Assembly: GCA_035289845.1 (NCBI GenBank)
Contig: DATDWB010000027.1
Location: 621 to 64,620, forward strand
Direction of reading: 5' to 3'
Origin: Candidatus Nanoarchaeia archaeon
GTDB lineage: Archaea > Nanobdellota > Nanobdellia > Woesearchaeales > GW2011-AR9
Length of the DNA stretch: 64,000 bases
Both the position numbers and the translations under genes were made by a program. Positions within the stretch are counted from its first letter, which is position 1. Each line of letters opens with the position of its first letter. Of the stretch, positions 10,743 to 12,872 are shown piece after piece. The notes beneath the pieces are model-generated. The model made no database searches and had not been told where the DNA came from. It saw only the letters and a program-made list of their open reading frames with translations.

Positions 10743-12872
10743 ATGTCTCTGAAGAAAAAGGAAAAAGGCGCCGATTGGTTTACTGTAGAAGTTGATTCAA
10801 AGGGAATCCTAACCCATTATCCTAAAGATGCCCTCCACGGATTAAAATCTATCCGGCTGCAGGTAGATTACGAGCCGGAAGCCTTGTACCTTCAGCTAAC
10901 ACAGGGGAAAAAACTTCTTAGCTCAGCAGTAGTGGATGGATCTTTCTACGAAAACTTTGCCGAACAATTACGTAAGGGGGCAGTATTAGAATTGCAAACT
11001 TCAATCGTTCAGGAGACAGAAAATGATCCGCCCATTCCTCGGCTGAAGATAAATTCTTTAAGAATTAACACCGATAAGCAATGGTATCTAACCCACCGCA
11101 CTGCTTATACCTTAGAAGATTTAACCGAGATTAAAAGAGAAATAAGACGGCGGGATGCTTATTATGATTCCTTAGCAGTTAGAGATAAAAAAAAGCAGAT
11201 TAAAATTCTTCAAAGAACGGAAAATGATCTTGATTTAGAAGATAAAATATCAGGTAAATTGGTTGAAGAACGTGGAGAGGAAGTGGAAGATGAAGATTTT
11301 AAAGAAAATGATTCTTCCACTGCCGAGGATTACATTGGGGCATTTACTTACCCAGAAATTAAACGAATTTCGCGGCAGCTGGGAATTAGACGACCCAGAT
11401 CGCCTGCCTCACCGCCCAGTCAAGGTGGGGGAAAAATGAAAAGCAATTCTGATCCACTCCAAATTGATTCTTACAGCTTAATTGAACAAGACCTGTCAAA
11501 ATCCAAAATACTCTCCAAAGAATCTGAAATTCAACTTTGTAAAAAAATAGAATCAGCCAAAAATTTAATCCAAAAATTAGGTTCAGAATTACCAATAACC
11601 CTAGCGATGTATTTCCCAAGTGAAATGCCTAAGGCCCTATCCAAATCATTAGAGTTATTGCATCAATGGAAAATTAATTATAATAATACTAATAATGGTA
11701 ATGGTATACTGGAGGAATATTTTAATTTTAAACCGTTTGATTGCGACCCTGAAAAAATTACCCAAACCGAAATGGAATTAGAATCCATTATTAAATCCTG
11801 GAAGAAGTTAGGACTGCTGGGATCGCCAATATTAGATGAAGTTTTTAAAAATACAGATCCTGAAAATGTATCTTTTTTCTCAGAAAAATATATTAGACCT
11901 TTAGGTTCGCTAAGAGCATTAGCTAAGATACCTTTTAATTCCCAAGTTAAAAAAGAATTAATCCGCTGGGCGGTGGAAAGAGGATTACAGGACTATTTGC
12001 ATAAGAAATCACCCGAAGAATCTACTTATTACAGAAAACAAGGCAATGGCTTTAGATTAAACAGCAGCTATTTTATATCTAAATATATAGAGGGTGAAGT
12101 AAATTATAATCAGTTAGTGGGAGAATTTGCCAAAGCAAATATGCGGTTAGTTAGATCTTATGTTAACCGGTTTAGTGGTTATTGCTCGGGAGCAATTGCC
12201 CTTACCGATCTTTTCCAGGAAGGCAACCTGGGTCTGCTTAGAGCCATCAAAAAGTTTGACTGGCGGAAAGGTCATAAGTTTTCAACTTATGCTACTTGGT
12301 GGATCTACCAAGGAATTAGCAAGTATGCCAAAGATAACAACAGCTCAATTAGAATTCCCTTGCATCTCCAAGATAAAATTCATAACATCAAAAAATATTA
12401 TTCTAATTTTACTCAACTATATGACCGGGAGCCTACCGCAGAAGAATTAGATCTTGAATTTCCTCCCGGCCAGCAGGGAAAGAAGTCGGGAAGTGATATT
12501 CTAAAAGAAGCCCGTTCAGCAAAAGTTTATTCTCTTAATTCAAACATCAATACCGAAGATGACAGTGAAAAATTCAAGTTAGACAAATATATAGATGGAA
12601 ATGAAGAAAACTTGGTTGGGTTCATGGCAGTTGAAAAACAGTCTGAAACACAAGTTTATGACCAAGAACTGTTAGAAAAAAATAATAGGATTATTAGCGA
12701 GGTTTTGGGTAAACGAGAAGCAGAGATAATCCGTAAACGGTTTGGGTTGTATCCCTACCAAAAGATTTATACTTTAGAAGCTATCGGAAATACTTTTGGT
12801 CTAACCCGAGAACGGATTAGGCAGCTTGAACAAATATCTATGTTAAGGTTGAAGGAAAAAATCATAAAATAA
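10743..12872 (+). CDS. sigma-70 family RNA polymerase sigma factor (RpoD-like: regions 1.2, 2, 3, 4) with long N-terminal extension
   Basis: Region 1.2 '[34 protein letters not shown]'. Region 2 '[13 protein letters not shown]...[65 protein letters not shown]'. Region 4.2 HTH '[53 protein letters not shown]'. Confidence 0.8.
   Translation: [709 protein letters not shown]

Follow-up and report, generated by a model that had tools for sequence, protein, structure and literature searches.

An intact sigma-70-family gene of bacterial ancestry among archaeal genes of a Candidatus Nanoarchaeia archaeon

The sigma-70 gene and its product

A single open reading frame (ORF) at positions 10743-12872 of the forward strand, with an ATG start codon and 709 residues plus stop, is the subject of this analysis; it lies in a 64,000-nucleotide stretch of contig DATDWB010000027.1 (assembly GCA_035289845.1) from a Candidatus Nanoarchaeia archaeon, and this whole stretch is referred to below as the window. 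An initial annotation, made from the sequence alone, had taken the ORF for a full-length, RpoD-like bacterial sigma-70 factor with recognizable regions 2 and 4, set in an otherwise archaeal gene context. The gene is an intact member of the sigma-70 family and of bacterial ancestry. Both regions are found by Pfam above cut-off, Sigma70_r2 (PF04542) at residues 464-533 with 56 bits against a cut-off of 24 (3.5e-15) and Sigma70_r4 (PF04545) with 35.3 bits against 24.1 (8.2e-9), and the alignments to NCBIfam models and to sequences in the PDB agree with this assignment. The protein passes the sigma-70 superfamily model TIGR02937 (79 bits, cut-off 42.9), and residues from approximately 450 to 706 form one unbroken alignment to the NCBIfam models for RpoD, SigA, SigB, RpoS and others, with E values of 1e-50 to 1e-20, those for RpoD, SigA and RpoS lying between 1e-50 and 1e-37. 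Sixty distinct sigma chains in the PDB are matched, the top sequence match being mycobacterial SigA (residues 462-704 against 233-453, E 4.7e-39), and the same residues 462-704 align continuously to solved SigA and RpoD structures. A Foldseek comparison with the PDB gave E. coli sigma70 in the holoenzyme as the best match, over approximately 500 columns.

The protein is built like a primary or group-2 sigma factor, with a putative region 1.2 followed by a non-conserved insert and by domains 2, 3 and 4 (Table 1). An AlphaFold2 model, for which 94 homologues served as input, is confident for residues 243-290, domain 2 (450-535) and domain 4 (640-709) and moderate for domain 3, with a predicted local distance difference test score (pLDDT) below 50 for residues 1-236 and for the region 3.2 linker at residues 593-632. 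Region 1.2 is probably present, although it starts a few residues later than the string first assigned to it; it is modelled as helices at residues 243-290 (pLDDT 80-92), and its score lies below the threshold of Pfam PF00140. The long insert that had been placed between regions 1.2 and 2 was found as described, with homologues only for the helix directly before region 2.1. Domain 3 aligns without interruption to SigA and to the RpoD_Cterm model, with predicted helices at residues 540-560, 566-572 and 583-592.

The label 'full-length RpoD-like' holds insofar as the protein resembles a primary sigma factor, but the 709-residue protein is not an RpoD equivalog, being devoid of region 1.1, divergent in region 3 and below the curated cut-offs. 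On residues 1-236 there is no Pfam match to region 1.1 (PF03979), even at E values up to 10, and BLASTP gives no similarity to residues 1-95 of E. coli sigma70. Neither PF00140 for region 1.2 nor PF04539 (Sigma70_r3) was reported by Pfam for the protein. The RpoD equivalog PRK05658 is missed with 172.9 bits against 555 and RpoD_Cterm (TIGR02393) with 167.9 bits against 354, and the score for every other NCBIfam equivalog model is also below its cut-off.

In place of region 1.1 stands an N-terminal region of 231 residues that is specific to the lineage. The extension of approximately 230 residues described initially is real coding sequence, because its reading frame is free of stops, whereas each of the five alternative frames has 12-22 (P about 1e-7), and because its codon usage is host-like (r 0.83 with host genes). 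A search for homologues of this region, which had been proposed as a check, returned none in Pfam, the PDB or the sequence databases. An internal start at Met232, which would yield a short isoform, was considered and rejected; the AGGTG upstream of this codon carries no weight, since in this genome Shine-Dalgarno motifs do not rise above background, occurring at 3 of 56 gene starts and at 2% of internal ATGs.

The residues to which function can be assigned were compared by aligning the sigma core with 262 bacterial sigma factors and with E. coli sigma70, whose numbering is used here. Of the 47 columns conserved to at least 95%, the protein retains 45; of the 62 conserved to at least 90% it retains 53, and of the 86 conserved to at least 80% it retains 63. 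At the latter two levels it falls among the bottom 2% and 1% of the sigma factors compared, respectively. Judged by this alignment, the core is divergent, yet its near-invariant skeleton is intact. Retained are the residues through which region 2.2 touches the clamp helices of beta-prime (D403, Q406, E407 and N409), the residues for melting and base capture at the -10 element (F419, F427, T429, Y430, W433 and W434), those that read the -35 element (R584, E585, R586, R588 and Q589) and the backbone contacts of region 4 (R554, R562, T572, L573 and E574). Q437 and H455 are also kept, T440 is replaced by Ser and E458 by Asp, and the near-invariant positions that have changed are R436Y, R441K and R448S, plus a few conservative substitutions. 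The roles given to these conserved residues in docking, melting and -35 reading are those which we take to be established by sigma70 genetics and structures; on that footing, the putative determinants of housekeeping-type -10 and -35 recognition are conserved in this protein.

Archaeal setting and authenticity of the locus

Domain scans of the window covered ORFs of at least 120 residues, 57 of the 59 listed; the two that fell outside the scans are reverse-strand ORFs nested within the genes for Topo VI B and PCNA. The archaeal context first claimed for the sigma gene is borne out by genes for Topo VI B and A, Hef, a RIO kinase and a KH protein, PCNA and a Toprim/DnaG-like protein (Table 1), together with a DRG GTPase and the diphthamide synthase part of a fused ORF in the window and an eIF-1A called on a syntenic contig, L017. 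Among the scanned ORFs there is no bacterial rpoA, rpoB or rpoC and no anti-sigma factor, which agrees with the earlier remark that no bacterial RNA polymerase (RNAP) core is in view.

The possibility that the locus results from a chimeric assembly or from mis-binning, raised at the outset as the main threat to the observation, can be excluded because the flanks are archaeal, the composition matches and independent assemblies agree. Set against all 2.1-kb windows, the tetranucleotide distance of the sigma gene gives a z-score of -0.53, the codon usage of the gene correlates with that of the pooled other genes of the window at r = 0.92, with a GC content at third codon positions of 0.32, and the GC profile has no break at the gene. 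The N-terminal part, the part comprising region 1.2 and the insert, and the core are each host-like in codon usage, and solely in the reading frame. A 100% identical protein has been deposited as HLD00594.1, from a Candidatus Nanoarchaeia archaeon metagenome-assembled genome on an 83-kb contig. In three ENA assemblies from different samples (L015, L016 and L017), the junctions that link the M48 peptidase gene, the sigma gene, an ORF of 139 residues and a DUF87 gene are reproduced with near-identical sigma copies, and L017, from a 53.8-kb contig, shares 22 kb of synteny that runs from an ORF of 381 residues (window positions 680-1825) through eIF-1A to Topo VI B. The sigma gene is almost certainly a real, native and intact sigma-70 homologue encoded by the archaeon.

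The ORF of 139 residues that follows the sigma gene adjoins it in the window and in L015, L016 and L017, and has no Pfam, PADLOC, PHROG or PDB match. Beyond it, 0.6 kb downstream of the sigma gene and convergent with the sigma operon, lies a HerA/DUF87-type ATPase with a full-length match to PADLOC mad8 (E 9.4e-22) and no defence-system partner identified nearby. A GC-rich stem closed by 8 bp (-21.2 kcal/mol) lies between the sigma gene and the ORF of 139 residues, with a z-score of only -1.67, so that the fold is not significant. Genes of bacterial type are also present in the same segment, namely those for LspA, GyrA, a DsbA-like thioredoxin and, immediately before the sigma gene, a LemA/HtpX (M48) pair; they fit the bacterial gene content described for DPANN archaea.

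Table 1. Segments of the sigma gene and other features of the window, with their coordinates
Feature	Position	Strand	Residues	Remarks
N-terminal extension	10743-11435	+	1-231	orphan; acidic stretch at residues 173-197; Pro/Ser/Gly linker at residues 216-236
Region 1.2	11466-11594	+	242-284	BLASTP to E. coli sigma70 residues 96-138, pairwise E 2e-4
Non-conserved region between 1.2 and 2.1	11595-12122	+	285-460	helical; AlphaFold2 pLDDT 41-71
Polymorphic tract	11606-11753	+		148 bp, in the non-conserved region around an Asn-rich loop; compared with L017 10864-11002
Sigma domain 2 (regions 2.1-2.4)	12123-12347	+	461-535	pLDDT 79-95 except for the last few residues
Sigma domain 3 and region 3.2 linker	12348-12638	+	536-632	divergent; short insertions
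Sigma region 4 (4.1-4.2 helix-turn-helix)	12702-12857	+	654-705	Pfam Sigma70_r4; pLDDT 87-95
GC-rich stem	12925-12990	+
ORF of 139 residues	13020-13439	+		co-oriented, 147 bp downstream of the sigma gene (ORF listing)
HerA/DUF87-type ATPase	13450-14784	-		444 residues
Toprim/DnaG-like protein	16393-17709	-
RIO kinase and KH protein	19001-20392
Topo VI B/A	21672-24612
Hef	34993-37209	-
PCNA	53730-54476
LspA	4792-5226
LemA/HtpX (M48) pair	9166-10644
GyrA	42648-45113
DsbA-like thioredoxin	56536-57255
Fused ORF of 691 residues	58715-60790	-
tRNA, first	~25332-25427	+		by eye, approximate
tRNA, second	~25493-25625	+		by eye, approximate
tRNA, third	~51232-51432	+		by eye, approximate
GC-rich structured element	18075-18150	-
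GC-rich island	32847-32957			in a 500-bp gap, 32527-33031

Several further features of the window deserve mention. The intron-bearing tRNAs of the initial annotation can be read by eye at three sites but were called neither by ARAGORN (default and intron mode) nor by Rfam (at gathering thresholds and at E values up to 0.1), which reported no tRNA or other RNA genes in the window. One of the three, with the anticodon loop CTTCTAA, has an intron of roughly 20 nt inside the T-loop, and the second and third apparently contain two or more introns, the third being approximately 200 nt long; all sit in GC-rich intergenic islands, and introns in the T-loop and elsewhere are an archaeal trait. A GC-rich structured element with a terminal hairpin (CCTGGCGGGTTCGCAAGAGCCTGCTGGG) and a T-run, located within a 570-bp intergenic gap and without an Rfam match, may be a small RNA. 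The most GC-rich island of the window, reaching 66% in 70 nt, received no Rfam or tRNA call and by eye is not obviously a tRNA. In a single ORF of 691 residues, a diphthamide synthase domain (Diphthami_syn_2) is fused to a module with glutamine amidotransferase and asparagine synthase.

Relatives and population variation

Orthologues were sought among GTDB species representatives, JGI metagenome contigs, IMG/VR, a 5.8-billion-cluster index and, by exhaustive HMMER search, a library of 1.84 billion representatives, and none was found in these collections beyond one cluster at 90% identity. The first 460 residues had no detectable homologue in these searches apart from the helix before region 2.1; in the HMMER search of the 1.84 billion representatives, the best stretch starts at residue 362 or later among the matches listed. 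The core at residues 440-709 matches tens of thousands of bacterial sigma factors on a flat plateau of 131-164 bits, with an identity over regions 2-4 of 35-43% and never above 43%. The named matches come from Patescibacteria, Saccharibacteria, Anaerolineae, Omnitrophota and Mycoplasmoidaceae and include RpoS of E. albertii; the top-scoring match sits in a bacterial gene context, no archaeal sigma factor is among the named nearest relatives, and loci that encode the rare peptide 'YATWWIYQ' are bacterial where the organism is named and otherwise have the gene order of a bacterial locus (L014). The bacterial donor lineage that the initial annotation proposed to identify did not emerge; no donor lineage or sister group can be singled out because the score plateau is flat, identity does not exceed 43% and no indels are shared with any match. 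The sigma gene represents either a fast-evolving branch or an old one. Giant proteins with an internal complete set of sigma-70 regions 2-4 are also among the best core matches, one of 3581 residues from Candidatus Omnitrophota with the module at residues 1964-2206 (P0008) and another of 2571 residues (P0035).

Two matches outside the cellular housekeeping factors required separate attention. The anti-phage protein MzaA is the top NCBIfam match and the only PADLOC match of the sigma protein, to which it is similar in length (709 residues and a model of 726 positions) and in having a long N-terminal region before an RpoD-like C-terminal half. There is nothing MzaA-specific in this match because the score, 172.9 bits against a cut-off of 800 for NF041931, equals that of generic RpoD, and identity with MzaA was rejected on this ground and for want of adjacent Mza partners: PADLOC searches of four neighbouring proteins gave solely HerA, mad8 and DndH-type matches for the DUF87 ATPase and no MzaB-E. 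The second match is to PHROG 351, a phage sigma factor family (1.7e-45); origin from a provirus or phage was rejected, as there is no IMG/VR relative and no viral hallmark gene among the neighbours.

Within the nine-member cluster at 90% identity, all 16 variable positions fall in residues 31-411 and none in residues 412-709. Between the window and L017 there are 21 nucleotide differences over 22 kb, and nine neighbouring genes are identical. A single polymorphic tract within the sigma gene holds 18 of the 21 differences, as nine substitutions and a 9-nt indel in an AAT-rich stretch; of the changes scored in the tract, four are synonymous and six non-synonymous. The remaining three are substitutions, once more closely clustered, within 38 bp (21155-21192) of a CN-hydrolase gene (20831-21643, reverse strand). 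A diversity-generating retroelement is not indicated as the source of the tract because the window contains no template repeat; in addition, the substitutions do not target adenines specifically, and the scans matched no reverse transcriptase. The likeliest cause is either recombination of the tract or a surface loop prone to slippage.

Possible roles of the sigma protein

Sigma-70 genes (fam00359) have been described in DPANN archaea, particularly Woesearchaeota, that also possess TBP, TFB and TFE; mis-binning was excluded there, no anti-sigma factors were found and the mechanism was left open (Castelle et al., 2021; PMC8204110). This report bears out the statement of the initial annotation that scattered sigma-like genes occur in DPANN bins. 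No later paper found in the literature searched advances the question of DPANN sigma factors, and a 2026 review states that archaea need no sigma factor. The gene analysed here is an unusually divergent further case of this published phenomenon and its protein is already annotated in GenBank, so that the contribution is one of characterization and not of discovery. Peculiar to this gene are the orphan residues 1-231, the lack of any relative above 43% identity and the 148-bp polymorphic tract. It is like the fam00359 genes, as far as their description allows the likeness to be drawn, in being a sigma-70 gene on a verified DPANN contig with no anti-sigma gene nearby, and relative to them it may stem from a separate acquisition that is strongly diverged, or represent a branch that evolves fast.

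Comparison with known systems brings out what is familiar in this protein and what is not. Bacterial RpoD, SigA and RpoS share with it the order of a putative region 1.2, insert and regions 2, 3 and 4 and the conserved key residues, whereas here the gene is archaeal-encoded with no bacterial core polymerase in view, a 231-residue orphan N-terminus takes the place of region 1.1, and region 3/3.2 is divergent. Phage sigma factors and the nuclear-encoded sigma factors of plastids are precedents for a sigma-70 factor encoded outside a bacterial chromosome, but their bacterial-type core polymerase shares a compartment with them, and the archaeal protein has no known core of this type. The functional counterpart in the host cell is archaeal TFB, like TFIIB in eukaryotes, which bridges promoter DNA and polymerase; the sigma protein has no detectable sequence similarity to these factors and is unambiguously of the bacterial sigma-70 type. 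Sigma and TFB have nonetheless been argued to be homologous and to sit at corresponding sites of the polymerase (Burton and Burton, 2014; PMC4581349).

The best overall explanation, with a probability of about 0.5, is that the protein is an archaeal promoter-DNA-binding sigma factor whose likeliest partner would be the clamp of the archaeal RNAP. The sigma protein would act inside the archaeal cell as a sequence-specific factor, with domain 4 reading a TTGACA-like hexamer and domains 2 and 3 a TATAAT-like element, which would be akin to a TATA box in this AT-rich genome. Docking on a multisubunit RNA polymerase would be through region 2.2, at the coiled-coil of the clamp. We know of no bacterial core polymerase in DPANN archaea, which makes the archaeal clamp (Rpo1N), corresponding in structure to the clamp helices of beta-prime, the likeliest docking partner, and the protein might then serve as an accessory or alternative specificity factor, or a regulatory factor, beside TBP, TFB and TFE. 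In sigma70, region 1.1 autoinhibits DNA binding by the free protein, so that a sigma factor without region 1.1 can bind promoter DNA alone. The components of this explanation do not stand equally firm. Action within the archaeon on the archaeon's own DNA seems rather probable; that the protein acts there while bound to archaeal RNAP is a tentative suggestion that may well prove wrong; and it is somewhat doubtful that archaeal transcription has taken it up to direct or modulate initiation at some promoters, in a hybrid system with TBP, TFB and TFE, or alternatively that it serves as an effector across domains.

A number of observations weigh against the proposal of an archaeal promoter-binding sigma factor. 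Genes for TBP, TFB and archaeal RNAP are, like those for the bacterial core, absent among the scanned ORFs of the window, so that the clamp interface is not in view. The residues that contact beta-prime are at the bacterial consensus, which fits a partner that is still bacterial as well as it fits a conserved interface, and the interface between sigma and core is extensive, including the flap, the protrusion and the RNA exit channel, and overlaps the sites of TFB. The matching composition could also stem from a low-GC donor, such as one of the Patescibacteria, and not from long residence. The strains compared are nearly clonal with most variable sites in one tract, which makes the evidence for constraint weak, and constraint on domains 2-4 reaches only a P of about 0.02-0.04 when independent events are counted. 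Promoter-like -35/-10 sites are not enriched in the interval from 1 to 20 kb (48 against 59 +/- 8), and in the 120 nt upstream of genes there are 13 against 14.4 +/- 3.6 expected by chance. Only two matches of at least 10/12 lie upstream of any gene in the window, TTGATC-16-TATAAT at 10641-10668 (+), a 10/12 match that precedes the sigma start codon by 75 nt, and TTAACA-16-TATAAT before the gene at 5947-6672 (reverse strand). A sigma70-type regulon in the window was rejected on these counts, which equal chance with the 10/12 match before the sigma gene included.

Among the alternatives, it is possible, though on balance unlikely, that the protein is a DNA-binding regulator that works independently of RNAP, its helix-turn-helix domains having been kept for their own sake, and that would bind double-stranded DNA unaided, for example to compete with TBP at TATA-like sequences. 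The missing region 1.1, with the free DNA binding that this would permit, and the retention of the DNA-reading residues are both consistent with such a role. Archaeal regulators are also mostly helix-turn-helix proteins of bacterial type (PMC2995911). However, this role would leave unexplained the retained docking residues of region 2.2, the retained aromatic residues Y430, W433 and W434, which capture single-stranded DNA, and the conservation of the whole 1.2-2-3-4 architecture.

A rather improbable alternative is that the protein is delivered into a bacterial host, prey or neighbour, where it would partner with the resident core RNAP and, in the manner of phage sigma factors, redirect or sustain transcription from housekeeping-type promoters, with the orphan N-terminus serving in delivery or tethering. 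All of the determinants specific to bacterial systems, for contact with the clamp helices, melting at -10 and reading at -35, are at the bacterial consensus, as would be expected if partner and target were still bacterial; a sigma factor that served a small private regulon could drift, as those of groups 3 and 4 have done. Patescibacteria and Saccharibacteria, with which DPANN archaea have groundwater habitats in common, are among the nearest relatives of the core that carry names, the archaeon's own DNA has no enrichment of sigma70-type promoters in the window, and the N-terminal region is unique. Set against these points, we know of no DPANN archaeon with a bacterial host, the described hosts being archaeal; neither a signal peptide nor a hydrophobic segment is present in the N-terminus; the sigma gene has no gene for secretion or transfer next to it; and a primary-like sigma factor would have to compete with that of the host, while the gene itself is located among housekeeping genes.

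It is quite unlikely that the gene is a functionless passenger, acquired fairly recently from a low-GC bacterium and not yet decayed. The confinement of orthologues to a single 90%-identity cluster in the collections searched would be expected of such a gene, composition would not betray a donor of low GC, and the population is too clonal to gauge selection on the core. Against a neutral passenger, all of the assemblies contain the 2.1-kb ORF uninterrupted, and no bacterial sigma factor is more than 43% identical, which leaves no recent donor among the 1.8 billion representatives. A 231-residue in-frame extension with host codon usage has moreover been gained, variation avoids domains 2-4, and sigma-70 genes recur across Woesearchaeota (PMC8204110). 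An artefact or mobile or defence cargo, whether a chimeric or mis-binned segment, a provirus or an Mza-like anti-phage system, is hardly credible despite the MzaA and PHROG 351 matches and the mad8 match of the nearby HerA/DUF87 ATPase, given an MzaA score far under the cut-off, only a generic HerA among the four neighbours tested, no viral hallmarks or IMG/VR relative, no break in composition and archaeal flanks in independent assemblies.

Sigma factors on the one hand and TBP and TFB on the other are the textbook markers by which transcription initiation in bacteria is told apart from that in archaea and eukaryotes. A sigma-70 gene retained stably in archaeal chromosomes, with the residues for docking, melting and promoter reading intact, raises a concrete question at this divide, for which the present protein offers a clean test, given a settled full-length sequence, a verified context and the lack of autoinhibitory region 1.1. 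Were the sigma protein to work with archaeal RNAP, this would bear on the proposed common origin of sigma and TFB and on the interchangeability of initiation factors, and were a DPANN symbiont instead to use it on a bacterial polymerase, this would suggest an unrecognised interaction across domains.

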